A stretch of 32,000 bases of DNA from Haloquadratum walsbyi C23 (GCF_000237865.1 NC_017459.1:2430001-2462000); one strand, 5' to 3'; shown: positions 8,102 to 28,667, numbered from the stretch's first letter. Notes: generated from the letters alone by a model not told the origin. Numbers and translations are program-made.

Positions 8102-8117
8102 GGGAAGTGAAGATTGA

Positions 8118-11788: not shown

Positions 11789-13210
11789 TCATTGAATCCC
11801 AGTAACCGTCGGTCGAATCGTCGTCACCCCAAGATCAATCGTCACTTGCTCACCCTGTCGTACTGGTTGTCCTTTCACACGAACGCCGTCAGTCGTCTGT
11901 CGAACCTGGACTCGCGCCGTAATTGTCACATCGCGGTTCGTCGGATGATCAAACACACCGAGGGATCCATCATCACCACGAATGAGAATTGTCGATGGAC
12001 GACGATTGACATCTGTCACTTGGACAATCGTATCTTCACCACTTCGCTCAGTAAGACCTGGCTGGATACTACTCGCTCGTCCTTCGCGAACTCCTGCAAG
12101 ACGGAATGTCATTGTTCGGGTTGTCACCCGTCCGCGCTGTTCGAGTGCTCCGGTGCGTTGAATTTGCCCAACGAGCCGGTATGCATCCGTTTGAACGGAA
12201 ACATTGTTTCCGCGTTGCACAGTCATCTCCCCGAACTGTGGACGATCAGTATGTTGGACTGTGGTTAGTGAAAGTCCCATGAACACACGCTTGCGGTCAG
12301 GATTATTCGTATCATAGACAGTAACACGTTCGACAGCAGCAGTTCGGTATCCTGCCACAGATGAAATATCACCAGGGGTGATTTGTTTGGTATCCGTTGC
12401 ATCGATAACATTCGTAATGAGCACATTGCGTGTTGCACGGTCAAGTCCACCACCAACGCGCTCAACCGTTCCACTCAACGTGTACTCATCACCTGGGAGC
12501 GTGATTGACGCCCCATTTGTCAATATGCTTCCCCCAAATCGGAGTTCACCCTGTCGTTGTGTTGCCGAGACATTGAGTTGCGCATACACTTGATGCGCAT
12601 TTGGATCATCAGTCGCGTATACCGCAAGATCCTCAACAGTGCCAGTCGTTCGTCCAGCAACACGAATTGCATCACCGACAGCAATCGCCTGTGCGGCGCT
12701 GCGAGAGAGTCGATCAGAGACAACGACCGTTGCCGGATCCTGTGAGATAGTCTGAGCATCCCCGAGTGCTCGGATGCGTCCGTCGACGCGATACTCGCCA
12801 GTGACAATCTCAAGCGTTCGCCCAAGCCGCGGTGGAGCACCATCATATGAGATGCCGTCGTATTGATCACTCAACTGTCCAGTAAGTGCCACGCGAGCAA
12901 GTACCCGCGGGCGTCCATCTCCATTCGGCGTGACATACAGATCGGATATCGTGAGTGAGTTCGAATCTGTCACCTCGTATGTGTCGCCCTCATTGATGAC
13001 TGTTGCAATCGTTGATGATTGAGTTCCTAAATCAAGTGTTGCATAGACAGTGTCTGTCTCGGGTTCGGGTTCGGGTGCTGGCTCATCACTTTGCCCAAAC
13101 ACGAGTGCAACGCCGGCGACAGTAACTGCGAGCACAAGAAGCACAACAAGCGCATCAATAATATTGACTGCACCGAAGAGTCGTCCCTCGTCGTCGATTA
13201 TATCCACCAC
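11789..13210 (-). CDS. DUF4330-type membrane-anchored protein
   Basis: N-terminus MVDIIDDEGRLFGAVNIIDALVVLLVLAVTVAGVALVF is the DUF4330 signature (IDxxGRLFGxxNIID plus a TM helix). It is followed by a PEPEPE linker and a long beta-rich Thr/Val/Gly ectodomain. Confidence 0.8.
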   Translation of the reverse strand: MVDIIDDEGRLFGAVNIIDALVVLLVLAVTVAGVALVFGQSDEPAPEPEPETDTVYATLDLGTQSSTIATVINEGDTYEVTDSNSLTISDLYVTPNGDGRPRVLARVALTGQLSDQYDGISYDGAPPRLGRTLEIVTGEYRVDGRIRALGDAQTISQDPATVVVSDRLSRSAAQAIAVGDAIRVAGRTTGTVEDLAVYATDDPNAHQVYAQLNVSATQRQGELRFGGSILTNGASITLPGDEYTLSGTVERVGGGLDRATRNVLITNVIDATDTKQITPGDISSVAGYRTAAVERVTVYDTNNPDRKRVFMGLSLTTVQHTDRPQFGEMTVQRGNNVSVQTDAYRLVGQIQRTGALEQRGRVTTRTMTFRLAGVREGRASSIQPGLTERSGEDTIVQVTDVNRRPSTILIRGDDGSLGVFDHPTNRDVTITARVQVRQTTDGVRVKGQPVRQGEQVTIDLGVTTIRPTVTGIQ

Positions 13211-13637
13211 AGATCACCAGAGTACTGCATCAGATGGCATATTTTCCTATGGCGTGAAAATCATTTCGTCATCGATGTTATCTAATTTCTATCTCTATGT
13301 TCACACAATCACACAATCAGTAATCGTGATATGATCCTCAGAATTATCGAGGTAAGTTAGAAAATGATTATATCAGTATTTTGCACAGGCACGACTCGTC
13401 AGAGCCTATTCGATTATTAACTATGTATATCGATACACGACATACAATCTATGCCGACCAAACTCATGGATATAAAACGTATACATCGAGTAATTTATGA
13501 CTAATTCAATGAATCATGACCGCCGCATATATATTGATTCTATCATATGTATAATTTAACTATCATACATCCGCAAATCAAAGATATGAGTGACACGAGC
13601 ATTGTGAGTATCTTCGATTGTATTGATTTATACTGGT

Positions 13638-14132
13638 ATGTCTGCGACTGATAACGATACGAGCGAATCACTGCGCGCTCGTTTGGAGACAACCGTCCAG
13701 CGTTCACAACTGGTGAGTGCGCTTACTCAGACATCCGAGAGTACAGTTGTCTCTGCTTTCCGTCGTGGTGGTCAGTGGATTGCTGATGCGACAATACACT
13801 CGTTTCTATATCGGTGGCTCACAAAAGAGCCAGAGCCTGAAGTCATTGTCATTGACTTGCGCGAGACATGGACAGTTGGACCGTTCATTACACTTCTTGA
13901 TGCATTCATTGCGTGGGTGCTTCCATTGTGGCGTGAGTCACAACTTGCACAACTCACTGGATCAATCGTGAGTATCGGTGAGGATCTTGCAGAGACGCGA
14001 TATGGACAACTTCTCGTTCAATTACTCGAACCGCCTGAGCCACCAACAGATCGGGATGATGATACCGAGTCAGACCAGACGGAAGCCACAGATGAGGATG
14101 CGTCATCGCATACGACAGAGCGGAATTCATAG
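13638..14132 (+). CDS. Hypothetical protein with an acidic C-terminal tail
   Basis: ORF with haloarchaeal acidic composition and one hydrophobic stretch (WTVGPFITLLDAFIAWVLPLW). The ATG at 13638 is preferred over the listed TTG at 13623. I recognised no family. Confidence 0.5.
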   Translation: MSATDNDTSESLRARLETTVQRSQLVSALTQTSESTVVSAFRRGGQWIADATIHSFLYRWLTKEPEPEVIVIDLRETWTVGPFITLLDAFIAWVLPLWRESQLAQLTGSIVSIGEDLAETRYGQLLVQLLEPPEPPTDRDDDTESDQTEATDEDASSHTTERNS

Positions 14133-14690
14133 TGTCAGATGAGGCTTCTGTCGACACTGCGCCCCTCATTGACGATTACACTGAATCCGAGCAGGACTAT
14201 TAGTTGGACTGATAACGCTCTGTCCGAGTAGACAACATCTTTATACGTCAGTTTCACCGTGCGAACCGACCACTTGTTGCAATCAGCTATCGGAGCGTAA
14301 TCACGACTCTCGTGGCATATTCGATTTCAGGACATGCACATGCATTCCTCACTCGGACAGGCATCACTCAATGGTCAAAATACTGGTATTCCTGATACTT
14401 GCTTGTGACTGAGAGCGTCCGAGAGAGCATACTCAGGAGTCAATTAACTAGATTCGAGAACTTGAGCGGCAGTCGTAATATGATAAGTTACTGAAAGCAA
14501 ACAATCAATATCGAATAATAACGAGAACTAAAATCAGTGGTGTTATGCAACGATTGCCCCATATCGATATTCAAGACGATATCATACCGACTCTGGTAGT
14601 TCATTAGACCAAATTCATAACACCGACCTGATCAATCAAACTCGCAGACACACAAACCAATATTCAATTTAATTTTATGACCGATCTATA

Positions 14691-15494
14691 ATGGCGGAGT
14701 CAGTCATTGTCGCAATCATTCTCGGTGCACTACAGGGTCTCTTTGAGTGGCTCCCAATATCCAGTGAGGGGAATATCACCGTCATTCTCGCTGCACTTGG
14801 AAGAAAACCAGGCGATGCCGTTACCCTCGCGTTATTCTTGCATCTTGGAACAGCCGTCTCGGCGACTGCATACTACCGAACGACGATTTATGAATTAATC
14901 GACGCAGGAATAACCCAACTCCGCGGCGGCGAGAGTGATGCACCACTCGTGTTTTATATAGTTGCAACAGGTGTTTCAGGAGTTGTCGGCATCGGGAGTT
15001 ACGCTATCCTACAAGAAATTGTCTCAGCACTCACTGGTGGTGCCGTCGTCATTGCGATTGGTGCATTACTGATTATAATGGGCGGATTTCAGCGTGTGTC
15101 TCCTGGAGGAGAGGTCGTCGCATCACCGGATCCGAGCATTATTGATGCAATCCTAGTCGGGGCAGCACAAGGGATTGCGATCCTCCCCGGAATCACACGC
15201 TCAGGGATGACGACTGGAACGCTATTATTACGTGGGTATGACGGGAGTGATGCATTCCGACTCTCGTTCGTGTTATCGATTCCTGCAGCAATCGGTGGAG
15301 GGGTTCTCGCCGCAGTCGACTCCGGATTACAGGGACTCACACCGACGGCTGCGATTGCCGCATTCATCACAGCAGCGATTGTTGGGTATGTCAGTATTGA
15401 TGTGCTCTTACGAATCGTTGAGCGAGTCGCATTTTGGGCTGTCTGCATCGGACTTGGGACAGCAGCGATTGTTGGTGGAGTTTTGGTAATCTGA
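14691..15494 (+). CDS. uppP: Undecaprenyl-diphosphatase (BacA/UppP)
   Basis: 267-aa polytopic membrane protein with the two UppP signature motifs: FEWLPISSEGN near the N-terminus and ILPGITRSGMT in the middle. Confidence 0.92.
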   Translation: MAESVIVAIILGALQGLFEWLPISSEGNITVILAALGRKPGDAVTLALFLHLGTAVSATAYYRTTIYELIDAGITQLRGGESDAPLVFYIVATGVSGVVGIGSYAILQEIVSALTGGAVVIAIGALLIIMGGFQRVSPGGEVVASPDPSIIDAILVGAAQGIAILPGITRSGMTTGTLLLRGYDGSDAFRLSFVLSIPAAIGGGVLAAVDSGLQGLTPTAAIAAFITAAIVGYVSIDVLLRIVERVAFWAVCIGLGTAAIVGGVLVI

Positions 15495-15784
15495 GACGTT
15501 TAGTCACAGCAGGGATAGAGCATCGATTTCAGACGCTTCTTGAACAGTACTGTATTAAACCGAAATCTTGTGAAAGCTCATGTTCGCCAGTGTGAGGATT
15601 CATTGCTCAATTACGATGAATTGACATTTATTTTATCATGGAAGGCAAGCACTGCATGGCGCATATGGGATACAATAAGTCTATATCCACTCCAGTTAAT
15701 CGGTTCAGGCATACAACAATACACCGGACAGTATTAGCTATTTCAAGCAGATATCCTGATATCTCACCCGAACTGATTAGCAAC
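15260..15784 (+). repeat. Long direct repeat, copy 1: uppP 3' end, downstream intergenic region and the last codons of a convergent gene
   Basis: Aligns by eye with 24609-25132. I counted 7 mismatches in the 235-nt uppP-coding part. The intergenic part is more diverged but colinear to ...CTCACCCGAACTGATTAGCAAC. Confidence 0.9.
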
Positions 15785-16327
15785 ACGAACCGCAGCAGCG
15801 TGGCTATCGTCAGGATCGAAATCATAGAGCGAGAGCGCCGCCTGTGCAATCTCAAGATTTTCTTCGATCTGTTGCCAGCGGGTGATATCTCGCCAGCCAT
15901 CGTCGCCGGGTTCCAGCTCAAGAGTGAGTTCGTCGACGGTAGCAACATCGTATTGCTTTTGGAAATTATTGAGTTCAGTCTTGAGATCTCGAATTGTGTT
16001 CCGGATTTCAGTTTTTGTATGTTCACGATGAATCGCTGCGATGCGCTTCATTGCCAGCATTTGTGGAGCACGCATATACCGCGTTTCGGACTCTGTGTTG
16101 ATTACTTTGACACAACCAGTCTCCGCTAGTATAGAGAGATATTTTCGCGCAGTCGACTCGCTCACATGCGCTCGTTCAGCTATCGCACTGACTGCCTGCG
16201 GTTCAGTCGTGACATCACTGACATGGCGAACACGGTCGAACGTACTTGTATCCACCTTCCACTGTTCAATCGCAGCCTCGTTCACGTCACCCTCCCACAG
16301 TTCGGAGCAAATATCGGCTGTTGTCAT
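15764..16327 (-). CDS. Winged-helix DNA-binding protein, paralog of 17067-17585
   Basis: 187 aa. The N-terminal region WKVDTSTFDRVRHVSDVTTEPQAVSAIAERAHVSESTARKYLSILAETGCV parallels WKEQTTAFDRIQSVASAVSQPQPVSHIAAEAHVAENTARNHLTRLVELNVL. The last 6 codons (ANQFG, stop) lie inside the long direct repeat. Confidence 0.75.
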   Translation of the reverse strand: MTTADICSELWEGDVNEAAIEQWKVDTSTFDRVRHVSDVTTEPQAVSAIAERAHVSESTARKYLSILAETGCVKVINTESETRYMRAPQMLAMKRIAAIHREHTKTEIRNTIRDLKTELNNFQKQYDVATVDELTLELEPGDDGWRDITRWQQIEENLEIAQAALSLYDFDPDDSHAAAVRVANQFG

Positions 16328-16426
16328 GTATATTTGGAACTATTGCCTCGAGTAATAAAATACGCTCTCAGAAATGACTAATATTTGTCGTCCTCGTTAA
16401 ATCATACTCGCTGTTCACTACTGTAT

Positions 16427-16756
16427 CTAGTATGGAGCACCGGGTCTCGTCCCTCGAAACCCGATTGCGGCGACAAGGGTGTCAGCCGTCTCTTCGGTAG
16501 TCACTTCCTCACGATCAAGTATTCTAATTGCGCCCTTAGATATCCTCACACCGAATCCGAATTCTCGTGAGGCGATGTGTTGAACGAGATCGACACACGC
16601 CTGAATCGCGTCTTCGAACATCCGTTCGACGGCACGCTGCTCCGTTATACTCGAGAGGAATTCTTGCCGGGGCAGTGTCTCTCGTTTTGTTTTGAGTTCA
16701 TTGTAATATTGCTCAATCTGCTCGAGTGTAAGGCACATAACTCGTTCGTCAACCAC
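16427..16756 (-). CDS. HEPN-type (DUF86-like) toxin partner of an MNT; probably degenerate at the C-terminus
   Basis: The GTG start overlaps the stop of the upstream MNT remnant. The body (AVERMFEDAIQACVDLVQHIAS) is HEPN-like. The expected R-x4-H motif (RDPVLH) is present only in the +1 frame just before the stop. Confidence 0.55.
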   Translation of the reverse strand: MVDERVMCLTLEQIEQYYNELKTKRETLPRQEFLSSITEQRAVERMFEDAIQACVDLVQHIASREFGFGVRISKGAIRILDREEVTTEETADTLVAAIGFRGTRPGAPY

Positions 16757-16848
16757 GTAATCCGTCCTCTGCTATCCGATCGATGACCGTACGCTGGTGC
16801 TGGCGAATCGTCTCACGTTGATCGTCAAATTCCGCCTCAATGTTGGAC
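16749..16848 (-). pseudogene. 3' remnant of a minimal nucleotidyltransferase (MNT) gene
   Basis: Encodes ...NIEAEFDDQRETIRQHQRTVIDRIAEDGLRG, stop. This parallels the C-terminus of the intact MNT at 28660-29091 (TEAEFDEQRETLRRHQRAIIDRIAEDGLRG). Homology stops near 16848. Confidence 0.7.
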
Positions 16849-17066
16849 GGCTCCCATTGAACAGGTCACGCGAAAGCGTGGTTGAACCGAGAGGAAACAC
16901 GGAAGCTCAAACTCCCCCTCGAGGGATCCTCACGCTCTCGCGCGGGAAGGATGTCAATCGGGAGCCTGTGCTGGTTTCATCTTAGGATAACGCCTCGCCC
17001 GAAATCATTGCTTCACATATTCTATTTGGAGATAGTTTTATTATTTTTGTCTTACTACATTATAAT

Positions 17067-17585
17067 ATGACTGACTCTGCTGGTGTTGAAGCCTGGAAAG
17101 AGCAGACAACTGCGTTTGACCGCATCCAGTCAGTTGCCAGTGCTGTCTCTCAGCCACAGCCTGTCTCTCACATTGCGGCTGAGGCTCATGTTGCCGAAAA
17201 TACAGCCCGAAATCATCTTACGCGACTTGTTGAATTGAACGTGCTGTTGAGGAGCGATCAGGATGGGACAGCTCTATACGCCCCTGATCCGCTCCACACC
17301 CGAATGCAGATGCTTCGAGACTTACTCGACGAACATGATCGTGATGGGCTCATTCAATTGAAGACTTCCTTGCAATCCCAGATTGAAGATTGGCAGGAAC
17401 AGTATAATACAGAATCACCAAGCGAGCTTCGCAACCGTGCAGCAGAGACAAAGACGGCTGCTCAGACACGCGAAATGCGGAACATAGCAAGCGATTGGGA
17501 ACTCATATTGTATCGCCTTTCTATCGTTGAGGATGCAATCGAGAATTACAATACATACAGCAAGGACTTCCAACTGTCAGCCTGA
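17067..17585 (+). CDS. Winged-helix DNA-binding protein with a coiled-coil C-terminal half
   Basis: 172 aa. wHTH region as above. An AT-rich box lies about 25 nt upstream of the ATG. Followed after 2 nt by the next ORF. Confidence 0.75.
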   Translation: MTDSAGVEAWKEQTTAFDRIQSVASAVSQPQPVSHIAAEAHVAENTARNHLTRLVELNVLLRSDQDGTALYAPDPLHTRMQMLRDLLDEHDRDGLIQLKTSLQSQIEDWQEQYNTESPSELRNRAAETKTAAQTREMRNIASDWELILYRLSIVEDAIENYNTYSKDFQLSA

Positions 17586-17650
17586 CTATGGCTGGATCGT
17601 CTGATTCATTTGATTCAGCAGCAGCGTCCCATCGCGCCCTTCGCAGTATC
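17460..17650 (+). repeat. Direct repeat copy 1 (about 190 bp): 3' end of the wHTH gene plus 5' end of the 142-aa gene
   Basis: Colinear with 22677-22868, with about ten mismatches by hand alignment. Confidence 0.88.
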
Positions 17651-18016
17651 AAACAAGAACTTGACCGACATCCAATCGTTACAGGGACCCGTGGGTTTCC
17701 CGCTGGCGATTTTGTAAAAGTGGTTGCAGATCTAGCTACAGAGCGGTGGGGGATTGACACTGATAACCCAAAGCTCACTGCTCGATGGTTTGCCGGAGAG
17801 AGGCAGGATGCTAGACCAGAGTTTTCGTTTCATTATAGCGATACTGAACGAGATTTTGGGTGGCATTATCATGAGCAAGAACACGTGGAGGGCTGGGGTC
17901 ATTTCCAAGAGCGGACAGGGGAGTCTGCGTATTCGTATGAAAGCTATACGTTTCCATCACAGAATCCTGCTGGACTCGTCTGGGATGTAATGTCCAACCT
18001 CTCTTCGAGAGTTTGA
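17588..18016 (+). CDS. Hypothetical His/Trp-rich protein; operon partner of the wHTH protein
   Basis: 142 aa, 2-nt gap from the upstream gene. The C-terminal half reads FSFHYSDTERDFGWHYHEQEHVEGWGHFQER. It loosely resembles His-rich cores of DUF6516/TumE-like toxins; this is not verified. Confidence 0.6.
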   Translation: MAGSSDSFDSAAASHRALRSIKQELDRHPIVTGTRGFPAGDFVKVVADLATERWGIDTDNPKLTARWFAGERQDARPEFSFHYSDTERDFGWHYHEQEHVEGWGHFQERTGESAYSYESYTFPSQNPAGLVWDVMSNLSSRV

Positions 18017-18709
18017 GCGGGCGATTACAGAATACTAGGAGAAAATCCTCCGTTTAAGCGCCAGAATGAATCCATTAACCGATAGCGAGTGTGAGTCTGG
18101 TCGGTTCAGTTCATCTGAGTTTGCCCGTATTGTTTGGTGATGGTCTTCCCCACCGACGTGATGAGGGGTTTCTCCTCAGTTGGCCTTCGACCAGCGACCA
18201 TGGTGGCTAACGGGTGTGTGCATATGACCATTCAAACAAGTGTTCGACGACTGGATCCATCGATTCAGGTCGTGAACCGATCCCCTGTTCGGCGCGTGAC
18301 CCGAATCGCCTCTTTATATCGACCGATTTCCTCACATACCATTGCCCACTCTGAAATTGTCTCCAGTTGGGCTTCTATCTCGGCGTGTGTTGCCTCAGAC
18401 GGCAGATTAAAACCGGAAAGTGTCCCGGCATTGAATTGTTCTTGATATTGATCGTGTATTATTTCGAGACTCCCGAGTTCATTGATGAGCTCCTCAAGAC
18501 TGTGTGAGACGGCATGTTCATTTGCTCGTCGCCAGCGAAGATACGCTTCGTTCCGTGCTCTCCGGCAGTTTTGACAGCTGCTTGTCCGCCCGCTGGCGCA
18601 TAACGTACCGGTGCTCGTCGCCGCTTTCCGACATACAATCCCAACAGTAACGACAAAACGGATATAAAACTAACTACCGGTATACAGCGGAGAGAATCAG
18701 AGTTCAGAG

Positions 18710-18868
18710 TTAGCGGTTCTGATTGTGTTCGTCGAATGTGACGTAGTCGCCGTCGAGGAGGTCCTCGACGCGGGCATCGAGTTCGCGGCGATCCACATCC
18801 TCCTCGTCGGTCTCGACTGCATCAGCAGTCTCGTGAGAAGTCTGACCGTCGCGGACATGATCGCTCAT
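18710..18868 (-). CDS. Possible small acidic protein (52 aa), below the ORF-track cutoff
   Basis: ATG at 18866-18868. MSDHVRDGQTSHETADAVETDEEDVDRRELDARVEDLLDGDYVTFDEHNQNR has haloarchaeal composition. The opposite-strand listed ORF (18725-18934) looks like a shadow. No family recognised. Confidence 0.35.
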   Translation of the reverse strand: MSDHVRDGQTSHETADAVETDEEDVDRRELDARVEDLLDGDYVTFDEHNQNR

Positions 18869-18934
18869 ACGCATAGAAGGAGCCGCAGCTTACTAAAGGC
18901 TTTTCGCCGCAGCCTCGGGAGAACGTCATATTAA

Positions 18935-19710
18935 CCAACAAATTCGTTCAATCCACGGTTAGTGTTGGTTAATGACGATATCGACACACCGTGTCTCGCC
19001 ACCGAGCACGTCCGTGCGCTCTACCAAGCGACCGACGATCAAGAAGAACACCTCCTGGTCCTCGCACTGTGTGCGTGGGGGCTTCGCCCGAGCGAAGTCG
19101 CGCGCCTCCACACGCGCCAGTTCGTCCTCGACGTCTCCACCGACGAAGTTCCGTATATCGTGTTCAAGGATCGAAAGAACGGCCCCGGCCAGGTGACGCT
19201 GCTCTACGGTCGGACTGTCCTGAAGGACCGACTCGCGACGTTCACCGATCACGACGACTGATAGTGATTAGTGCAAGTCTTTACCGCCGTGATTATCCGT
19301 GCCGTGATAGGAGCCCCTTAAACCGCGTCATTCGACACCGTCGGTGAAACTATTCGAACTAATCACTATGAGACGGCTATTTGTTCCCGTCACCCCATGC
19401 CTGGGGTGGGCCAATCCCACGGTGGACAGTCTGGAACAGATTTTCACAGCTCGCTGACCGTGTGGGGCTTGCCGACGAAATCGACGGAGTGGCACCTGCG
19501 CCGAAAATGGGGCGGCGGTACTGGTACGACGCGTACTCTGCGTCGCTCGACGTCGTTCTCGGTAGCCTCGACGAAATTGCGGCCGAACAAGGCAGCGCCA
19601 GCGCCGACGTCGTGTTGCAAAATTACCTCTCAGATTCGCGAGCCCGGAAGCTTCGGCAAGAATATATGCGTGAACAACTGGCTGCCGCGTTTGAACCGAC
19701 CGGCGAATAA
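18935..19710 (+). pseudogene. Tyrosine recombinase (phage-type integrase) remnant: N-terminal domain missing, catalytic domain split by a MITE
   Basis: Part 1 has LLVLALCAWGLRPSEVARL (catalytic Arg box). Part 2 (open from 19372) has DGYLFPS..., APKMGRRYWYDAY and GSASADVVLQNYL (His/Arg and Tyr boxes). The frame opens only at 18935, with no core-binding domain upstream. Confidence 0.75.
19259..19371. mobile_element. 113-bp MITE-like insertion in the integrase gene
   Basis: Perfect 12-bp terminal inverted repeats ATAGTGATTAGT (19261-19272) and ACTAATCACTAT (19358-19369). GAC lies on both flanks (19256-19258, 19372-19374). Removing it restores the integrase frame (...TDHDD / GYLFPS). Confidence 0.7.
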
Positions 19711-19768
19711 CGCCTCTACAGGCGGAACAGGCCGAGTACCTCGGGGGGTGACTCCGAAGCTATTCACC

Positions 19769-20198
19769 TCAGTTGAAGGGGTTGTCCGCAGTGTTCAGCC
19801 GCGTGACGGCGTCGAGCGCGTCGAAATCATCGTCGAACGAGTAGAGGTACTCGATACCTTCTCGTTCCATGTATGCCGCAATGGTCGAATCGACGAATGA
19901 GAGCTCCAAGTACCGGTGGAAGAGGGCCTGAACAGCGTTGAAATCCGTTTTCGGTCGTGGTCAATCTCGAAGTGGGCGCCCTCAATGAGCCGATCCAGCA
20001 TTTCGTTCGCAGCGTCTGGTCCGAGTTTCTCGCCGGTGAGGTTCAGCATTTCCGCGACGACGTAGTTCGTCACCATAACATCCGGAAGGTTGCCGTGGTC
20101 GATACCTCGGACAATCTCCTGAGCGCGGTCGTGGTAGTTGTCACGGGCGCTTGCACTGGGAAGAGGACGTTGGTGTCTAGGAGGGCAACCGGCATCAT
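19769..20198 (-). pseudogene. vapC: PIN-domain toxin VapC with two frameshifts
   Basis: Three frames give, in order, MMPVALLDTNVLFP..., then ARDNYHDRAQEIVRGIDHGNLPDVMVTNYVVAEMLNLTGEK...HFEIDHD, then FNAVQALFHRYLELSFVDSTIAAYMEREGIEYLYSFDDDFDALDAVTRLN. The ATG overlaps the vapB stop (ATGA). Confidence 0.75.
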
Positions 20199-20440
20199 TC
20201 CGCCCCGAACTCGCTCTCGACCTCGGCTGCGTCCGTCTCGCCAGCATCCACCGGCTCGAAGTCGTCAAAGACGCCCTCACGCTGATGGATGATCTCGATG
20301 GATAGGTCCCCCTCTTCGTTGGTGGTCCACCGAAGCTTGTCCCCCGGCTCGATGTCGAGACGTCGACGGAGATCGGCAGGGATTGTCACCATCCCCTGGT
20401 CGCCCACCTTCGTTTCCTCAGGACCTTCTTCAGTTGCCAT
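20195..20440 (-). CDS. vapB: AbrB/SpoVT-type antitoxin VapB
   Basis: MATEEGPEETKVGDQGMVTIPADLRRRLDIEPGDKLRW is a swapped-hairpin (AbrB) motif. I prefer the ATG at 20438-20440. Confidence 0.8.
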   Translation of the reverse strand: MATEEGPEETKVGDQGMVTIPADLRRRLDIEPGDKLRWTTNEEGDLSIEIIHQREGVFDDFEPVDAGETDAAEVESEFGAE

Positions 20441-20565
20441 ACCTTCGCGTACTGACCTCCGTAGCATACATATTGCTCTATATGTAGAGAGAGGATCGGT
20501 CCCCCATACTGCATATCTACACCATTGAATTTCCAGCTACACTACTCCAACCGCCGCAACTTTCT

Positions 20566-21132
20566 CTACCCATTCCACGTAAGCTGGTCAACGGTTGGAA
20601 ACTCGGATTTTGCTGTCTGGGGCGGGTTGTAGTATCGGGATTTGATATCGTAGTACCCGAATTCGGGAGGGAGACGAGCACACGCCATTGCCAGATTTTC
20701 GTCCGCTGTGTGGGTGATCACACGAATTCGGGCATTCGCGTCGAACAATCGAACCGCCAACGCGACCAACGACGCATCTCGCCAGTTGTTCGTCTCTGGG
20801 TACTTGCTTTGCTGGTTGAGAAACTCATCTGCAACGAACCGCGCTTTCTCAACCGGTCCAGCACTACTATCGAACCCCTTTGTGCGATCACCTGGTAGCG
20901 GTGTGGCTACCCGAAGCCACCCCTCTTCGACAGCCGCATCGAGGTACGGGTTCGTCGGTGAGTCGGTACTCCCAGTATCCGCCAGTTCGTGGTAGACCGC
21001 TGCTGGCACCCAAATTTCTGTTCCGGCTTGCTCTACGGCACGCTTGAGCGATTGTAAGCGCGGAGTGGGGTGCTTCCCTAAATTCCGAAACATCACCGTG
21101 TCCGCAATATTCGCAGTATACATCCTCGTCAT
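20566..21132 (-). CDS. PIN-like domain protein (188 aa), candidate toxin
   Basis: The N-terminal NIADTVMF acidic motif and the later ITHTADENLA suggest a PIN-like fold. Its ATG overlaps the upstream gene's TGA (ATGA at 21129-21132). A paralogous pseudogene lies at 25112-25659. Confidence 0.65.
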   Translation of the reverse strand: MTRMYTANIADTVMFRNLGKHPTPRLQSLKRAVEQAGTEIWVPAAVYHELADTGSTDSPTNPYLDAAVEEGWLRVATPLPGDRTKGFDSSAGPVEKARFVADEFLNQQSKYPETNNWRDASLVALAVRLFDANARIRVITHTADENLAMACARLPPEFGYYDIKSRYYNPPQTAKSEFPTVDQLTWNG

Positions 21133-21761
21133 TCGGTCTGCTTGTCGGCGAATTCCTCGAGGAGATTGCCTTCGTCCTCATCGAAATCATCCGGTGTGTA
21201 CGTCGTCGGGGGTGACTCGTCGTCACCGAGATCGAGAATCGAATAGAGCGCTTCGACGAGATCATACGCAGTACCAGGCGAAAGGTCTGTGAGGCTCGCG
21301 ATCTGCCGGATTGTGACGTCCCCCTCGCTGTGTGCTTTTACGAGATCGTATGCGAGTGCGAACGTGACGATGCCGTGCTCTTCGAGAACCCGTTTGATCG
21401 GGGGGTACTCGTTCTTCTGTGCGATCACCTCAATGAGTTCGGGAGTAATCGAGACTTCTGTCTCGCGGACCGTCAATATCAGCTCAAACTCTTCAGCGGT
21501 GTATACGGCGGTCCCGGCGTCGTCACCGGCCTTGCTGATCAGACCCGCCTGCTCCAGCTTATGGAGATAGTCGTACACCGTCTTCTTCGAGACAGTTGTT
21601 GCTTCGACGAGTTCGGGGGCCGTGGCAGTCGCTGAGCGTCTAATCGATGTATAGAGGCTAGCGAGGGACGGGTTTTCGAGTAATTCTGTAAACGTGGGGA
21701 TTCCGGTGATCATCCTCGGAGTGTCCCCCGCATTTCGCACGTGTTCTGTATCGTAGCTCAT
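21129..21761 (-). CDS. Double winged-helix DNA-binding protein, candidate antitoxin/regulator
   Basis: Two wHTH-like segments: TAPELVEATTVSKKTVYDYLHKLEQAGLISK and VTIRQIASLTDLSPGTAYDLVEALYSIL. Acidic tail. ATG at 21759-21761 preferred. Confidence 0.7.
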   Translation of the reverse strand: MSYDTEHVRNAGDTPRMITGIPTFTELLENPSLASLYTSIRRSATATAPELVEATTVSKKTVYDYLHKLEQAGLISKAGDDAGTAVYTAEEFELILTVRETEVSITPELIEVIAQKNEYPPIKRVLEEHGIVTFALAYDLVKAHSEGDVTIRQIASLTDLSPGTAYDLVEALYSILDLGDDESPPTTYTPDDFDEDEGNLLEEFADKQTE

Positions 21762-22021
21762 CTTGTATAGAGTTACGAAACTAGAAATCATAAACGTTTG
21801 CCACGGAAATAGAGCACTGCAGTGTTCACAAACGAGGGCACTGCTTTTCCCGTAAACAACCCATTCAACGAAGCGAACGACGAAGCCATGAGGAATTAGT
21901 GGGCCGGTTTACGCGTTTTCATTTGCTTGTGGCCGCCAGCATCCGAACATAAGACAGCGCTGGGACGGTCGCCCAGCTGAACGAGATCACCACAAGGAGA
22001 TTTTCAGGATAGCTAGATCAG

Positions 22022-22401
22022 TGAATCATAGAGTCCGTTAATCAATGAATTATTGAAACCATTAATCAGAGAGTCAAGGAGTACTTGATTCTTGGAATGC
22101 AATAGATCTCGGCGAGCCGGGATTCAATGAATCAGTGAATCAAAGAGATAATGAATCAAGGAATCTGTTACTATAGGAAGGGCTGAATCACTGATTCAGT
22201 AATGCCAGTAGCGAAACCAGTACTCAGGAACCGGGCATAGCGAGTAGAGGATTCATTGAATCCATGAATCAAGAATTCACTGATTCCTAGCCAATCTTGT
22301 GAAATATGGGTCTGTTGGAGTAATATACCGCGGAATTCAGCGTTCGAGAGTGTCTAGACCGGCATTAGATGTCTGACGTAAATTTATGAATCAGTGAATC
22401 A
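22022..22401. repeat. Iteron array: TGAATCA/TGATTCA heptamers in an approximately 640-bp intergenic region
   Basis: Nine perfect heptamers start at 22022, 22128, 22136, 22152, 22184, 22192 (inverted), 22265, 22387 and 22395. At least six one-mismatch variants are also present. The 17-mer ATGAATCAGTGAATCAA occurs twice (22127, 22386). A near-palindrome CTGAATCACTGATTCAG lies at 22183-22199. Confidence 0.85.
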
Positions 22402-22473
22402 ATGATCGTACTATGACCGAGTCGTAGTTGGATAGCAAGATCAAGATACACCGCTCAGTGATACCTCTCGTTC

Positions 22474-22676
22474 TTACCGAAGTTCTCTCCCACCTAGAAT
22501 TGACTGGAGCTGTTCAGGTGGATCAAGTCCTCGTCGTTTCCACGTCGCCAACATCGTTGTTATTGTCTCGTGAATCTGGACCCCTTCTGCCGAACGGAGG
22601 GTCCGAAACATCTTCCGAAGGACTACTTGCTCGCGCAGAGCCCGCTCTGCGCGATTATTCGTCGAGTCAATGCCTG
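22474..22676 (-). pseudogene. C-terminal fragment of an IS66-family transposase
   Basis: GIDSTNNRAERALREQVVLRKMFRTLRSAEGVQIHETITTMLATWKRRGLDP carries the IS66 NN-x-AER motif. It is truncated at 22676/22677, where the 190-bp repeat begins. Confidence 0.7.
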
Positions 22677-22868
22677 GCTCAGACACGCGAAATGCGGAAC
22701 ATAGCAAGCGATTGGGAACTCATATTATCTCGCCTTTCTATCGTTGAGGATGCAATCGAGAATTACAATACATACAGCAAGGACTTCCAACTGTCAGCCT
22801 GACTATGGTTGTATCGTCTGATTCATTTGACTCAGCAGCAGCGTCCCATCGCGCCTTTAGCAGTTTCA
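22677..22868 (+). repeat. Direct repeat copy 2 (truncated second copy of the wHTH 3' end and the 142-aa gene 5' end)
   Basis: Encodes ...AQTREMRNIASDWELILSRLSIVEDAIENYNTYSKDFQLSA, stop, then MVVSSDSFDSAAASHRA... before diverging. Confidence 0.88.
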
Positions 22869-22880
22869 GTCATCAGTCAT

Positions 22881-23102
22881 CTATTCATATTTCCGGACGA
22901 TTCCAAGTGTGACAAACTCCTCAAGATGAGTCCATGCAGCGTCCGCCGAGCACTGTATGCAATCGGCGATTATCGCTACCGTTGCGGGGTCACGGAGTCC
23001 AAAGGCAACACTGCGGATTCGATTTCGAGTATGTGTCGTTTCTGTCCACACCTCCTGCTCTTTCGTGATTGCTCCATCGGGCGGCGCGGGATCGAATATA
23101 TA
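22881..23102 (-). pseudogene. Short wHTH-family fragment (N-terminal domain only)
   Basis: The open frame reads ...EVWTETTHTRNRIRSVAFGLRDPATVAIIADCIQCSADAAWTHLEEFVTLGIVRKYE, stop. This parallels the WK..T.FDR(I/V)..V...IA......A..HL pattern of 17067-17585 and 15764-16327. The only start is a GTG at 23049-23051. Confidence 0.4.
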
Positions 23103-23489
23103 TCAGATATATTAGTTATTACCGCAAATATATTTGCAATTGGTATGTTACACGCGCTTTATTCGAAACTCCCAGCTGTCGTTGTGATGCTTCTTGGTTT
23201 CAGTCCCCGTGAGCCGATTGGGATATTGATAGATGATCGAAATGCTGAACGGACAATCTCCAGTGTGATTGAGAGTATATGATACGAAGGACGTGTTCGT
23301 GTGTTCAGTACTTTAGATACGATCCAGCATTTCGAATCACATACTTTCTGAGCGGTCTTCGTATCACTCTCCGGACGAGAAAACATCCCTTGTCATATTC
23401 TGATGTCCTCTCAACGGCGGTATAGATATTTTCGTCAAAACGCAATTACACAGCGCAAGAGTAAGCTATTATAGCAAGTATTACTATAT

Positions 23490-23750
23490 ATGAGTGAGTC
23501 TACTCGTGTCACAGAGAAGGGTCAGGCGACGATCCCTCACGAACTCCGCGAGAAATATGGCATAAATCCCGGTGACGAGGTCGTCTGGATGGACACTGGT
23601 GAGGGGATCGTGGTGAAAAAGCGTACTCGTACCGGCGGACGTGGGATGCTCGTTCCTGATGACACCTCGGATGCGAAGCGTGAGGAGATCGCCGAAGAAT
23701 TGGGACAGCGCGTTCGAAATCGCCGCGATCGGAACTACGAAGAAGTCTGA
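23490..23750 (+). CDS. vapB: AbrB/SpoVT-type antitoxin VapB
   Basis: MSESTRVTEKGQATIPHELREKYGINPGDEVVW is the AbrB swapped-hairpin motif. Followed 1 nt later by a PIN gene. Confidence 0.85.
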   Translation: MSESTRVTEKGQATIPHELREKYGINPGDEVVWMDTGEGIVVKKRTRTGGRGMLVPDDTSDAKREEIAEELGQRVRNRRDRNYEEV

Positions 23751-23751
23751 G

Positions 23752-24159
23752 ATGGCAGCATACACTACTGACGCCGTCTCGCTGCTGGTCTATCTCGTCG
23801 ACGCGCTCCCACAGGAGGCTGATCAAGTGTTCGCCGAAGCTGAAGCTGGGGAAACGGTCATCAAGACACCAAGTACAGCGATTGCTGAAGTGCTGTACTC
23901 GGTCTCCCGCGACAAGGACATTCGGGGCATCTCTCTCACGGGGACACCAGAGGACGCCCGTCAGGCGCTGGTTGGAAACGGACCGATCTCGGTCGCGCCC
24001 GTCGGTAATGCGGAGCTGGCAGAATACGCCCAACTGCTGGACGAGTTCAGCATCCATGACGGCCTGATTGTCGCTAGTCACCGCGCACAGGAGACTGATG
24101 CCATCCTCACGACTGACGGTGTTATCAGCAACGCCGGTTACAAGACGATCTGGGAGTAA
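23752..24159 (+). CDS. vapC: PIN-domain toxin VapC
   Basis: 135 aa from the ATG at 23752 (MAAYTTDAVSLLVYL...SIHDGLIVASHRAQETDAILTTDG). It has the N-terminal acidic residue and the C-terminal D-x-x-I / T-x-D PIN pattern. The listed ORF 23641-24159 starts too early. Confidence 0.8.
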   Translation: MAAYTTDAVSLLVYLVDALPQEADQVFAEAEAGETVIKTPSTAIAEVLYSVSRDKDIRGISLTGTPEDARQALVGNGPISVAPVGNAELAEYAQLLDEFSIHDGLIVASHRAQETDAILTTDGVISNAGYKTIWE

Positions 24160-24242
24160 CTTTTCTCTTCTGTGGTTATTGGACTCATCCGAGGATTGAA
24201 ACCATGGGTTTCCCTACATGTTCTTCTGTGAGTGAACGCGCT

Positions 24243-24608
24243 CTACCCGAAGTCGGAGTCAATACTGCGACCGGTGACGTACTCATCGCTCCCTATTCGC
24301 TCAGGCGCGTAACACGGGGTCTGCCAACCCGCGATGAACACCGGCGCCTCAATGTCGAGATCACTCCATCGGTCCAACAGCGGCGGAACGTCATCCCGGG
24401 GTTCGCTCACGCGCGGCTCGCGGTGAGTGTAGATCGTTCCCCTCGGTGGTCGGTGTTCGGTCGGTGGTGGGAGCGACTTCTTGACGATGTCATTGATGAT
24501 GACAATCCGCACGTTGAACAGCTGGGCGGGATACCACGCCGGAGTGGTCACGTCACATGCGACGACAAGGTCCCACGTTTCGAGTGCGTCTACGAACTCC
24601 CTCTTGAA
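24243..24608 (-). pseudogene. 5'-truncated gene fragment of unknown function
   Basis: The frame reads FKREFVDALETWDLVVACDV...LLDRWSDLDIEAPVFIAGWQTPCYAPERIGSDEYV... The tail resembles the frameshifted tail at 29746-29870 (PDIEAPIFHTADHGPCYVPDREGNNAYV). The N-terminal part of listed ORF 24243-24797 is merely antisense to the uppP fragment. Confidence 0.4.
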
Positions 24609-24843
24609 ACTCTCGTTCGTGTTATCGATTCCTGCAGCAATCGGTGGAGGGGTTCTTGCCGCAGTCGACTCCGGATTACAGGGACTCACACCGACGGCTG
24701 CGATTGCCGCATTCATTACAGCAGCGATTGTTGGATATCTCAGTATTGATCTGCTCTTACGAATCATTGAGCGAGTCGCGTTTTGGGCTGTCTGCATCGG
24801 ACTTGGGACAGCAGCGATTGTTGGTGGAGTTTTGGTAATCTGA
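24609..24843 (+). pseudogene. uppP: Duplicated 3' fragment of uppP (last approximately 77 codons)
   Basis: LSFVLSIPAAIGGGVLAAVDSGLQGLTPTAAIAAFITAAIVGYLSIDLLLRIIERVAFWAVCIGLGTAAIVGGVLVI differs from UppP residues 190-267 at 3 positions. No upstream uppP sequence is present. Confidence 0.9.
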
Positions 24844-25132
24844 AAGTTCGATCACAGCACGGATAAAGCACCGATTTCAGACGCTTCTTGAACAGTGCTG
24901 TATTAAACCGAAACCTTGTGAAACTCATATTCGCCAGTGTGAGGATTCATTTCTCAATCACAATGACTTGATATTTACTTTATGATGGAAGGCAAGCACT
25001 GCACGGTGCATATGGGATACAATGAGTCTATATCCACTCCAATTAATTGATTCGGGCATATGACAATACACCGGGCAGTATTAGCTATTTCAACCTAGGT
25101 ATCCTGACATCTCACCCGAACTGATTAGCAAC
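24609..25132 (+). repeat. Long direct repeat, copy 2
   Basis: See 15260-15784. Confidence 0.9.
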
Positions 25133-25659
25133 GAGAGTATCAATGAAATCCCGTCCTTCTATGATCATTGTGGTATCCCCGACACCGACAGCCGTGAGCA
25201 CGTCCTCAATAGCCTGTTCAGCTTTCGTATCGCTCACGAGCACGATGACATGAGTCGTATCATCCATTGCGTATTGATATGCGAGCCCCGCTAGAATAGT
25301 GTCCGTTTTCTCAATGTTATCTTCGGTAACGTCCTTAACAAAAAGATTCAGCATACGCTTCCGGGTTTTATCAACGACTTCAGAAACGCGGGGGATTGAA
25401 AAATCGACTCGCCCGGATTCAAGCCACCCAGCATTTTGTGCCGCCTGCGATCGGGTACGCTGCTAAACATACACATTCAGGCTTTCTCCCATTTTCTCGG
25501 CAACATGCCTTGGGACATGTATTGAGAGGTTTCGACGCGTTACGAACTGTTCGAACGCACGATACTGTTCGGTATCCGGTCCACCCATAGCGATGAGGAC
25601 ACTACTGTCGATGATGGCTAGGGTACGCTATTACACGGAATCTCTATTTTCGAACCCAT
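25112..25659 (-). pseudogene. PIN-like protein, decayed paralog of 20566-21132
   Basis: The pieces LAIIDSSVLIAMGGPDTEQYRAFEQFVTRRNLSIHVPRHVAEKM, AAQNAGWLESGRVDF... and MLNLFVKDVTEDNIEKTD...VIVLVSDTKAEQ lie in different frames and are separated by stops. They align with NIADTVMFRNLG...EIWVPAAVYHEL...AAVEEGWLRV... of the intact copy. Confidence 0.65.
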
Positions 25660-26149
25660 CAGTCGATCTGATTAAGATATGGGTCATGTGCCACAGCCTC
25701 CTCGACAACATCTTGCAGCGCCGTGAACACAGTCAGCCCCTCAACAGGATGGACACCGAGCTTGTTTGTACCTGTTCGCTGCGTGAAGCCGCCATCTATA
25801 ATCCGAAGCGTGTAATGGAGCGCGGCAGCCAGTTTGGAAACTCCCTGTCGGTCAACAAACACGCGAATATCCTCGCTCTCGCGTTGTCGACCAATCGCAT
25901 CAATCAAGACGGGTGTGGCACTGATGACAACATGTTCGGTATCCAATTCAATTGAAGATGAATCGGGTCAGCTGTTACCGTCGTGGGCGATACATCTTCA
26001 TCTCGAGTCAGGATATCCATTTCTTCGAGTCGTCTAAGATACTTGTATGCGGTTGAGTGCGGCATGTCGAGTTCAGTTTTGATCAGTTCAATCTCGACAG
26101 ACCTCATTAAGTCCCAGCTCGCGTAGTTCGCGACCCAAGCTTCGGGCAC
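25659..26149 (-). pseudogene. wHTH protein, frameshifted paralog of 21129-21761
   Basis: The first part is HSTAYKYLRRLEEMDILTRDEDVSPTTVTADPIHLQLN. After a frameshift near 25930 it continues DTEHVVISATPVLIDAIGRQRESEDIRVFVDRQGVSKLAAALHY. Compare AVYTAEEFELILTVRETEVSITPELIEVIAQKNEYPPIKRVLEEHGIVTFALAY. Its stop overlaps the ATG of the downstream PIN-like pseudogene. Confidence 0.65.
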
Positions 26150-26284
26150 GGGCTTTCCTCATCTCCTTGTGGTAACTACAGTCACAGACGGAACAACGGA
26201 TACACAAACATTTCTTCGTCAAGAAACTCAGAATCCAGACGTGTGAGGAGATTTAAGAGCCTTTAGCAACGGATTATAATAATC

Positions 26285-26623
26285 ATGAGACGAGAACAGC
26301 CCCCTGGCGTGCCAGTGGATGACAACCGTGAGCCATCGCTCCGCGATACCCTCGACGCCGTACGAGGCATGGACAGCCCAGGGGTTACCACCACTGACAT
26401 CAGAATCATTCTCGGCTGCTCTGCCGACACAGCTCGCCGGCGCCTCGAAATCCTATTTGAGCAAGGTCACGTAGACCGCCGGAAAACCAATCAGCAAACG
26501 CTCTGGTGGGAAATCGAATCCGAACACACCGAAGAGCGTGGCGCTGCTGAACATCTTGAACCCGTCGAGGGACCCAAAACAAACGCTGTCGAACTCATTG
26601 AAGCTAGCAGAGACGAGCGGTGA
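26285..26623 (+). CDS. Small winged-helix DNA-binding protein
   Basis: 112 aa. VTTTDIRIILGCSADTARRRLEILFEQGHVDRRK is an HTH plus wing pattern. Its stop overlaps the GTG start of the next ORF (GTGA). Confidence 0.65.
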   Translation: MRREQPPGVPVDDNREPSLRDTLDAVRGMDSPGVTTTDIRIILGCSADTARRRLEILFEQGHVDRRKTNQQTLWWEIESEHTEERGAAEHLEPVEGPKTNAVELIEASRDER

Positions 26624-26922
26624 CTGATCAGTATTCGGTTCCATACGAGGATCCACATCGTATCGTCACAAAACAATTCCGCCAAGTCACAGTCCAACAC
26701 GGTACTGGTGGTAACACGGTTCGTGGCGCACGACAGCGAGCACGCGTATCCCGCGCGAGTGACCCGCAGTACGATCGCTTCAACAGCGTCACGCTGGACG
26801 GGCGTTTTGTGCTAGTCTGTGCACTCGACGACGACGAAATCGTCAGGCTCACAACGGAGTTCGTCCCGGAGGGCGATCACGTCGGGTTCAGGTTCGAAGG
26901 GTCACTTGTTGCCAAAACGTAA
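26620..26922 (+). CDS. Hypothetical protein, coupled to the upstream wHTH gene
   Basis: 100 aa with a 4-nt overlap to the upstream gene. No family recognised. Its first approximately 18 codons lie in a 53-nt segment repeated at 29067-29119. Confidence 0.45.
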   Translation: MTDQYSVPYEDPHRIVTKQFRQVTVQHGTGGNTVRGARQRARVSRASDPQYDRFNSVTLDGRFVLVCALDDDEIVRLTTEFVPEGDHVGFRFEGSLVAKT

Positions 26923-26948
26923 TTACCTAGCACAATCGTAGATGTCCT

Positions 26949-27239
26949 ATGGCAACCGAAGATATCTCAACTCGACTCGCACAGCTCAAACCGAAACTTG
27001 AGCAGGAGTATCCGATCAGCGAGTTGGGTATCTTTGGGTCGTACGCGCGTGGTGAACAACAGCCTGACAGCGATCTCGATATACTCGTCGCGTTCGACAA
27101 GCCAGTAACGTTGTTCGATCTCGTTCGGTTAGAAAACGAACTGACAGAGGAACTTGGTATTGAGGTCGACCTCGTGACGAAAGACTCGTTGAAGCCACGG
27201 GTTGAATCCCGCGTTCGCGACGATCTCGTCATGTTATGA
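26949..27239 (+). CDS. mntA: Minimal nucleotidyltransferase antitoxin (MNT/MntA)
   Basis: GIFGSYARGEQQPDSDLDILVAF is the canonical GS-x-x-RG ... D-x-D nucleotidyltransferase motif. 4-nt overlap with the HEPN gene. Confidence 0.9.
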   Translation: MATEDISTRLAQLKPKLEQEYPISELGIFGSYARGEQQPDSDLDILVAFDKPVTLFDLVRLENELTEELGIEVDLVTKDSLKPRVESRVRDDLVML

Positions 27240-27574
27240 CAGCGGTTCTGGACTATCTCGATGACATTCTTGACGGCGTCGAGAAGATCAAGCGATATAC
27301 ACGAGAGATGACCTACGAAGAATTCGTTGACGACTCAAAGACAGTCGACGCAGTACTCCGAAATTTTGAGGTGATCGGCGAAGTAGCGAAGAACGTTCCT
27401 GATGAGATCCGTCAAGAGTATGATGATGTGCCGTGGTCAGAAATGACTGGAATGCGTGATAAGTTGATCCACGGATACGCAACCGTCGAATTACAAATCG
27501 TCTGGACAACCATCCAAGAAGAGGTGCCAAGCTTAGGAGCACAGATCGAGTCCGTTCGAGACGAAATTGAATGA
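27236..27574 (+). CDS. hepT: HEPN-domain (DUF86) toxin HepT
   Basis: 112 aa with R-x4-H-x-Y (MRDKLIHGY) near the C-terminal third. Typical DUF86 length and position after an MNT. Confidence 0.9.
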   Translation: MTAVLDYLDDILDGVEKIKRYTREMTYEEFVDDSKTVDAVLRNFEVIGEVAKNVPDEIRQEYDDVPWSEMTGMRDKLIHGYATVELQIVWTTIQEEVPSLGAQIESVRDEIE

Positions 27575-28606: not shown

Positions 28607-28611
28607 GCCCA

Positions 28612-28667
28612 TGGTGGGATTGTTCGATCTGTTCGAGTTTGATCCCAACGACGCGTTCGTCAACCAC
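28612..28667 (-). pseudogene. 5' remnant (about 16 codons) of the HEPN partner of the MNT at 28660-29091
   Basis: VDERVVGIKLEQIEQ parallels MVDERVMCLTLEQIEQ of 16427-16756. Similarity ends a few nt from the vapC stop. Confidence 0.6.

Follow-up and report, generated by a model that had tools for sequence, protein, structure and literature searches.

A duplicated uppP 3' end in Haloquadratum walsbyi C23: probable old scars of recombination between diverged versions of a hypervariable toxin-antitoxin island

Repeat-mediated deletions, occurring between direct repeats of 4-20 bp, and deletion-coupled insertions have been described as the main modes of change in the genome of Haloquadratum walsbyi, and the donor DNA of the latter was held to be 'probably from close relatives' (Dyall-Smith et al. 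2011, PMC3119063). Elements integrated at tRNA genes of the same species, such as GI3/DV11 and DV7, are marked by 22-43-nt repeats beside an integrase and by coherent phage or plasmid cargo (PMC3119063). Elsewhere, the orphan modules of Rhs and contact-dependent inhibition (CDI) systems, as well as the orphan immunity arrays of the type VI secretion system (T6SS) of Vibrio cholerae, have been explained by 3' module displacement through homology-facilitated illegitimate recombination (Kirchberger et al. 2017, PMC5361080, and references there). In this study, a locus of H. walsbyi C23 was compared with these systems. Within a stretch of 32,000 nt (NC_017459.1:2430001-2462000, hereafter the window, with positions counted from its first letter), the intact undecaprenyl-diphosphatase gene uppP is followed downstream by a second, partial copy of its own 3' end, so that two direct repeats, R1 and R2, bracket a set of toxin-antitoxin (TA) and winged helix-turn-helix (wHTH) genes. 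We consider that these repeats are probably old scars of recombination between diverged versions of one hypervariable TA/wHTH island of H. walsbyi, of the displacement type, with homologous and illegitimate joins and later remodelling.

By gene content and locus-tag arithmetic, the locus would lie in DV10, a C23-specific region (nt 2411939-2454921) with transposase remnants, glycosyltransferases and one integrase homologue (PMC3119063); Hqrw_3995 is placed at 2.993 Mb, and the 2.62-2.70 Mb part of J07HQW1 corresponds to Hqrw_3137 (PMC4330952). The organism and the genome are thus those of the earlier work, but only C23 and HBSQ001 were compared there; uppP, undecaprenyl, this repeat and this junction are unmentioned in its text and supplements, and its Table S5 of repeat-bounded indels holds neither a 525-bp case nor an indel of this size. 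The outcome seen here, in which the anchor sequence is duplicated, is also not among the cases described in that study. Besides uppP, seven more window proteins are exact H. walsbyi C23 entries (CCC41202 to CCC41223), and tRNA and Rfam family searches of the window found none.

The comparison set comprised metagenome contigs, metagenome-assembled genomes (MAGs) and Lake Tyrrell assemblies. Two uppP-linked alleles were distinguished: type I, in which uppP and one repeat (R) are followed by window 25133 onward, and type II, in which uppP is followed by a gene for a 305-aa helix-turn-helix (HTH) protein, by block G (a stretch of ~880 bp upstream of block D, with no called gene) and by full-length D. 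Block F (3.5 kb) occurs only in J07HQW1, s'P' denotes a 329-bp remnant of the spacer and gene P, and H1 is a haplotype of environmental contigs. The name PIN_halo rests on the precomputed annotation of homologues (PF26425 on 126-aa homologues). The setting is one of TA and winged-helix genes, the 15-29 kb stretch being a patchwork of paralogous TA-like modules (MNT/HepT, MazE/PIN, wHTH/PIN_halo and DUF7342). The principal features are the following.

14691-15494, plus strand: intact uppP (undecaprenyl-diphosphatase, BacA family; Pfam PF02673, E=1.4e-44), identical to C23 CCC41201.1 / WP_014556630.1
15260-15784, plus strand: R1, 235 nt of the uppP 3' end and a 290-bp spacer; its right end is formed by the final 7 codons of a PIN_halo gene (repeat search, pairwise alignment)
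15764-16327, minus strand: DUF7342 wHTH gene with a chimeric C-terminus, 187 aa, the native 24-aa acidic tail replaced by QFG (PF24033, E=1.4e-43)
15777-15784: the 8-bp microhomology TTAGCAAC at the R1-D junction, equal to the VAN codons of both minus-strand genes (comparison with J07HQW1 contig L016)
15777-18558: block D, with the DUF7342 gene (minus), a HepT-like fragment at 16427-16756 (minus), a DUF7342 gene at 17067-17585 (plus) and a 142-aa gene at 17588-18016 (plus); 94-97% identical and collinear in L004/L005, L016, L017, L035 and H1
18559-22872: nested insertion I, plasmid-derived, 4.3 kb; 18558 abuts 22873 in L016, L017 and L035
22873-24608, plus strand: block E, with a 157-aa open reading frame (ORF) at 22809-23282, MazE at 23490-23750, PIN at 23752-24159, and a 305-aa TumE-like gene reduced to its 5' ~400-435 nt (ORF open from 24204, interrupted at 24608)
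24609-25132, plus strand: R2, a fossil uppP 3' end (78 codons, without the 5' part) and spacer (repeat search, alignment, BacA profile)
25112-25492, minus strand: P, a PIN_halo-type gene (126 aa in H1) with a stop at codon 10 in C23, where an 80-aa ORF at 25112-25354 is left (PF26425 on 126-aa homologues; frame comparison)
25422-26624: block Q, with a DUF7437 gene at 25659-25946 (minus), an 81-aa ORF and a 112-aa wHTH gene at 26285-26623 (plus) (contig comparison)
26620-29119 and 29688 onward: blocks M and N, respectively

Three collinear families of direct repeats were returned by the repeat search (15260-15494/24609-24843 at 97%, 15504-15575/24852-24923 at 93%, and 15574-15746/24921-25093 at 89%), and pairwise alignment joined them into a single continuous repeat of ~525 bp, with two 1-bp indels and a sharp drop in similarity at both sides; a match of this length at ~92% identity far exceeds chance. 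The two copies agree at 228 of 235 positions in the uppP 3' part and at 88-89% across the 290-bp spacer. At the R1 side uppP is complete, R1 being the 3' end of the working gene, while the uppP part of R2 corresponds to BacA profile positions 178-255, the last 78 codons. A first-pass annotation, made from the sequence alone, had described diverged direct repeats of ~525 bp at 15260-15784 and 24609-25132, with 7 mismatches in 235 coding nt, more in the spacer, and a second copy lacking the uppP 5' part; repeat search and alignment of the window against itself placed the repeats exactly there and returned the same count.

That annotation had also regarded the copies as different population alleles and not as a fresh duplication, and the comparison with other genomes bears this out, as R1, R2 and the repeat of the type I contig L007 are approximately equidistant (93.6-97% in the uppP 3' part, 89-92% in the spacer). 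R2 is orthologous to the R2 of H1, with 96.2% identity in the spacer versus at most 92% to any other allele. The nearest allele of R1 shifts along the locus when 100-bp windows are compared: its uppP 3' part reaches 98.3% identity to the type II contigs L004/L005, and its spacer is 91-92% identical to L007/L018 and only 77-80% to type II, a patchy profile that fits allele shuffling. Between the R2 copies of C23 and H1, two codon changes are synonymous and four non-synonymous, including G>E and G>R, and the gene-linked uppP 3' copies show mostly synonymous differences (for example 7:2 and 7:1), suggesting that the fossil copies are under relaxed constraint, though the counts are small.

These alleles also bear on another account of the repeats, namely that the C23 lineage duplicated the sequence in situ, as a tandem or segmental repeat whose copies then diverged, or else that the assembly is in error. 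Such an account would explain the direct orientation of the copies, and the window does hold further small direct repeats (D2, D4 and D6). However, the spacers differ by 11% and the coding parts by 3%, the same pattern as among orthologous alleles of different lineages, while C23 and HBSQ001 are only 1.4% apart in shared sequence (PMC3119063), and R2 clusters with the R2 of H1, away from R1. Independent assemblies reproduce both repeat junctions: uppP-R-truncated DUF7342 is spanned by L018, and E-R2-P by L019/L029, L021/L030, L022, L023, L024, L026, L027 and L032. Since both junctions are carried by independent assemblies, the repeat is not an assembly artefact, so that this one of the refuting outcomes named by the earlier reading does not apply, and we find duplication or artefact hardly credible as an explanation.

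The contigs covering the locus show how the blocks are arranged elsewhere. Type I is represented by L007 (KB659958.1, 1.1 kb), which carries uppP, R and window 25133-25309. Type II was observed in seven contigs (L003-L006, L008, L038 and L039), with uppP, 123 bp of spacer, the 305-aa HTH gene, G and a DUF7342 gene of the full 208 aa, and with window 15777-18306 matched at ~97%. A C23-like left junction was found in L018, which holds uppP, R and the 187-aa chimeric DUF7342 gene and is too short to reach the E-R2 side. In J07HQW1 (L016, KE356560.1) the order is Amidohydro_2, FeS_assembly_P, s'P' (329 bp, window 24924-25252), G, D (15777-18558), E (22873-24610), F, M (26620-29119) and N (29688 onward), and F opens with the remainder of an intact 305-aa TumE-like gene. 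Haplotype H1 has the left side of J07HQW1 and, after E, the R2-P-Q stretch at 96% identity to C23; it was detected in at least nine contigs of JGI, ENA and NCBI MAG origin (L019/L029, L021/L030, L022, L023, L024, L026, L027, L031 and L032). Yet other joins at the locus are present in L017, L035 and L025. J07HQW1, H1 and a scaffold from Lake Tyrrell all have D joined to E, with the same spacer/PIN_halo block beside them, and H1 has the E-R2 junction without the R1-D junction. Each of the four pairings of left state (uppP or FeS) with right state (E-R2 or E-F) must at some time have existed, and this implies recombination between the junctions.

At the E-R2 junction, the sequence ...CCCTCTTGAA is joined to ACTCTCGTTCGTG..., so that the 305-aa gene breaks off at codon ~135 and uppP is entered at codon ~190, with an overlap of only about 2 bp. 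Block E is 96.2% identical to L016 12288-13737 of J07HQW1, where the 305-aa TumE-like gene is kept intact (13299-14216; TumE E=1e-4). R2 would thus have arisen when a type I fragment, running from about codon 190 of uppP through the spacer, P and Q, was joined illegitimately to the 5' part of the 305-aa gene, the 3' part of which would have been displaced or replaced. This event is probably old, because C23 and the common environmental H1 share the exact junction, base for base, in at least nine environmental contigs. No BacA gene was called in L029, the only E-R2 contig read over ~10 kb on both sides, and none in the 5-7 kb upstream covered by L030-L032. Between the shared blocks E and M, from 24610 to 26620, R2-P-Q (2.0 kb, window 24611-26619) stands in place of F (3.5 kb, L016 13738-17253), so that common flanks enclose sequences with no relation to each other, as in the deletion-coupled insertions of H. 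walsbyi (PMC3119063). The Q-M junction at 26620 (GTGAC) is present in C23, L023, L025 and L028, and a comparison of the several joins within and next to the spacer-P block gave no core common to them. A match of window 24432-24484 to a type II-specific segment was considered as a sign of circular permutation and was rejected as weak paralogy.

The right boundary of R1 seems to be a second, independent event. The C23 sequence there reads ...GAACTGATTAGCAAC followed by ACGAACCGC..., and the 8-bp TTAGCAAC, present as a single copy at the point of fusion in C23 (15777-15784), occurs twice in J07HQW1 (L016 ~7709-7716 and ~8715-8722), ~1 kb apart, where P' ends and again close to the end of DUF7342. 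Two copies in the undeleted arrangement and one at the junction, with a length inside the 4-20 bp range, are the marks of the repeat-mediated deletions of this species, and the right end of R1 is a microhomology junction of that kind (PMC3119063). The 187-aa DUF7342 protein is 92% identical to the 208-aa J07HQW1 protein as far as ...VAN; beyond it, the native tail is ...VANTDRVVRSDSDERGALGDESEQSTT and the C23 tail ...VANQFG, and the same 187-aa chimera is found in the ENA contig L018. The minus-strand ORFs 15764-16327 and 25112-25354 both terminate in VANQFG-stop, and P ends in VANQFG or VANQLG in L007, L016, L017 and H1. Since P is the native owner of VANQFG and the native DUF7342 tail differs, the wHTH gene is the chimera, which bears out the point of the first-pass annotation that one of the two genes ending in ANQFG has a borrowed C-terminus and settles which one it is. 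It appears that a DUF7342 gene short of its last 24 codons became linked through TTAGCAAC to the final 7 codons of P, with ~1 kb (P, block G and the DUF7342 tail) removed or bypassed.

Both junctions also bear on the model of the first-pass annotation, in which uppP was entered, through a single Campbell crossover in the C23 lineage, by a circular accessory element (~9.35 kb, made up of 15785-24608 and one R) that carried a uppP 3' segment of a related lineage; an older variant places the crossover in an ancestor, with a circularised piece of chromosome as the incoming DNA. The model accounts for direct repeats of which one is continuous with an intact uppP, for their divergence as alleles, and for the plasmid-like genes and the recombinase-like pseudogene between them; the 'empty site' allele that it predicted exists as L007, and its topology is the same as that of the explanation favoured here. 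Yet D and E are syntenic with spacer-P in genomes without the duplication. As D is native beside spacer-P and is linked to uppP in type II, the adjacency of R1 and D is therefore no new integration junction. The E-R2 junction exists in H1, where L029 lacks uppP, so the two novel junctions do not occur only together; the repeat is bounded on its right by a secondary junction at TTAGCAAC that truncates a gene; the plasmid-like genes sit in a separate nested insertion; and the enclosed DNA is, apart from that insertion, native to the locus and no coherent foreign insert. IMG/VR gave no match to the conserved spacer 19-mer or to the 172-aa DUF7342 protein, a phage collection gave none to window 15200-25400, and no contig joining E, R and D was present among the loci compared. 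What survives of the Campbell-type signature is a duplicative topology, with the intact gene and a repeat at one end and a repeat with the old neighbour at the other; a single circular element spanning 15785-24608 and integrated by one crossover in this lineage does not survive. The recent, C23-lineage version of the model is thereby weakened, and as a whole we regard the model as unlikely, though it deserves to be kept in mind.

The most economical mechanism would be homology-anchored illegitimate recombination between diverged alleles (module displacement), followed by microhomology deletion and allele shuffling. The arrangement is that of module displacement, because the last 78 codons of uppP precede spacer-P-Q at R2 while D to E follow the intact uppP. 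One-sided homology in the uppP-3'/spacer/P anchor, combined with an illegitimate join at the other end, would yield the duplication by homology-facilitated illegitimate recombination, topologically a Campbell-like 'ends-in' insertion, and the DNA between the repeats would be mostly the ordinary downstream neighbourhood (D and E) with the nested 4.3-kb plasmid-derived insertion. The order of these events is inferred, and so, from the junction anatomy only, is the one-sided-homology origin of the duplication, for which the contigs yielded no parental alleles. As in Rhs, CDI and T6SS loci, a conserved upstream anchor is combined with an illegitimate far end, the old module is pushed downstream with a fragment of the upstream gene, and the arrays are shuffled between strains by ordinary homologous recombination. 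Unlike in those systems, the anchor is a housekeeping-type membrane phosphatase gene with an intergenic spacer and not a polymorphic toxin core, the cargo consists of TA-like and wHTH modules, the host is an archaeon, and a selective logic such as retained immunity is not part of the case.

Several points weigh against this explanation. L007, the only type I contig, ends inside P, so that uppP-R-P-Q was not seen on one molecule. No contig carries the postulated intermediate uppP-R-P'-G-D-E (two further uppP contigs checked for it are both type II), and for R1-D both a deletion and a direct join of two alleles at the microhomology are conceivable origins. An ancestral Campbell crossover of a circularised chromosomal fragment would give the same topology for the origin of E-R2 and is inseparable from the linear 'ends-in' version. 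Moreover, the synonymous and non-synonymous counts are small numbers.

The nested insertion I and the repeats near it hold the following further features.

17460-17651, plus strand: D2a, the left-hand member of a nested pair of 192-bp direct repeats, 96% identical to D2b at 22677-22868
18962-19710, plus strand: frameshifted tyrosine-recombinase-like pseudogene, ~205 aa (Pfam Phage_integrase, E=0.044 only)
19769-20467, minus strand: VapC-like PIN pseudogene and MazE, a decayed pair
20566-21132, minus strand: 188-aa gene (a 185-aa homologue is annotated PIN_halo)
21129-21791, minus strand: TrmB/DUF7437 wHTH gene, 220 aa
~22125-22424: ParA fragment, followed by an IS66 fragment at 22424-22687 and by D2b

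The D2 pair (192 bp, 96%) takes in the 3' end of the 172-aa DUF7342 gene as well as the beginning of the gene that follows, and it brackets 5.2 kb; the H1 contigs have a single D2 copy, with ...17651 joined to 22869..., which is the 'empty' form of the pair. The recombinase fragment shows 70-81% amino acid identity, over 97% of its length, to ~205-aa ORFs of haloarchaeal plasmids, some of them annotated as integrase. Full-length relatives at this level of identity were noticed in 138 haloarchaeal plasmid records, often annotated merely as hypothetical, and in a Halobaculum halobium plasmid the relative adjoins a ParA gene that also matches window 22125-22424. The two-gene cassette of the 188-aa gene and the TrmB/DUF7437 wHTH gene (window 20161-21836) matches plasmids from six or more haloarchaeal genera at 87-91% nucleotide identity, including Halolamina, Natribaculum, Halobacterium (pNRC100/pNRC200) and Halorubrum, among others. 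This cross-genus identity is unusually high and suggests a module that has been spreading recently.

Some archaeal elements target tRNA genes or the 3' ends of genes, and a tyrosine-recombinase-like ORF does lie between the repeats, which would allow the uppP 3' end to be read as an attachment site (attB) used by an integrase, with R1 and R2 as attL and attR. Nevertheless, this gene is frameshifted, has distances of 3.2 kb to R1 and 4.9 kb to R2, and belongs to insertion I, which is missing where D directly adjoins E. The repeats are 525 bp long at 92% identity, with no short identical core defining their ends, both of which are illegitimate junctions in coding sequences (the 305-aa gene and DUF7342); the window is without tRNA, and no intact or partitioned integrase was found beside an attachment site. 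Like Campbell-type plasmids or proviruses and the tRNA elements GI3/DV11 and DV7 (PMC3119063), the locus has a repeated 3' part of the target, an intact and a partial copy, and an empty site; it differs in its long and diverged repeats, in a cargo made of its own neighbourhood, in a recombinase-like gene that is a nested pseudogene, and in two illegitimate ends. Site-specific integration is accordingly rated very improbable.

Comparatively, uppP itself looks accessory in Haloquadratum. Its 90% protein cluster contains the C23 accession alone, no HBSQ001 or J07HQW protein was found among the top 120 uppP homologues, and no HBSQ001 accessions occur in the protein clusters listed for the window proteins. 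The next named relatives are from Halobaculum at ~63%, and a search of genome contigs in a collection without H. walsbyi C23 returned relatives of at most 47% identity. The gene stands at the edge of a low-GC island of glycosyltransferases and insertion sequences (IS) (window 1-13000, GC down to 37%), in which a glycosyltransferase gene is seemingly split by an IS-type transposase gene (2838-4055, 405 aa; window 2273-4788) and a second transposase lies in pieces at 8118-9662.

Other observations concern the genes of the neighbouring blocks. In block D the HepT ORF 16427-16756 is truncated, and a decayed MNT/HepT pair upstream of the DUF7342 genes (16693-16843 versus 28604-28754) is 76% similar to the intact MNT gene 28660-29103. 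The annotated 80-aa protein WP_049892039.1 is probably a remnant of P, the C-terminal coding sequence of which is also present in L007, L016 and L017; a Pfam scan of the 80-aa, 142-aa and 188-aa ORFs gave no match. L025 (CAJEJA010000207.1) has window 19779-22423 joined directly to 25479-27632 (99.4% and 98.4% identity), skipping 22424-25478, that is, the IS66 fragment, D2b, E, R2 and most of P, and this is another illegitimate junction at the locus. The 568 bp at 29120-29687 are present in C23 and absent from J07HQW1 and L017, where 29119 abuts 29688; they interrupt a paralogue of the 100-aa gene whose start recurs at 26620-26672 and 29067-29119, and they hold only a 21-nt internal hairpin, with no terminal inverted repeats.

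A wider idea, which we put forward with considerable doubt, is that the uppP-3'/spacer/PIN_halo block might serve as a recurrent 'landing pad' of Haloquadratum, a portable homology anchor that time and again captures and displaces TA/wHTH cassettes and leaves orphans behind, such as R2 in C23 and H1 and s'P' beside FeS_assembly_P in J07HQW1 and H1. If true, it would be an archaeal counterpart of the Rhs/CDI/T6SS orphan arrays, in which selection might favour the retention of displaced modules. No new biology and no new type of system are implied by our data, and a direct repeat of the 3' end of a gene is not by itself proof of an integrative element. As present effects, the wHTH protein and the TumE-like gene are truncated, and the repeats offer a substrate of 525 bp at 92% identity for deleting 9.35 kb. 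For the 'deletion-coupled insertion', the mechanism of which was left open in PMC3119063, the locus offers concrete junction sequences. It is a base-resolved, multi-haplotype case of how a flexible island is rebuilt in an abundant and globally coherent archaeon, in which homologous exchange between alleles, together with microhomology and illegitimate joins, would leave fossil gene ends behind.

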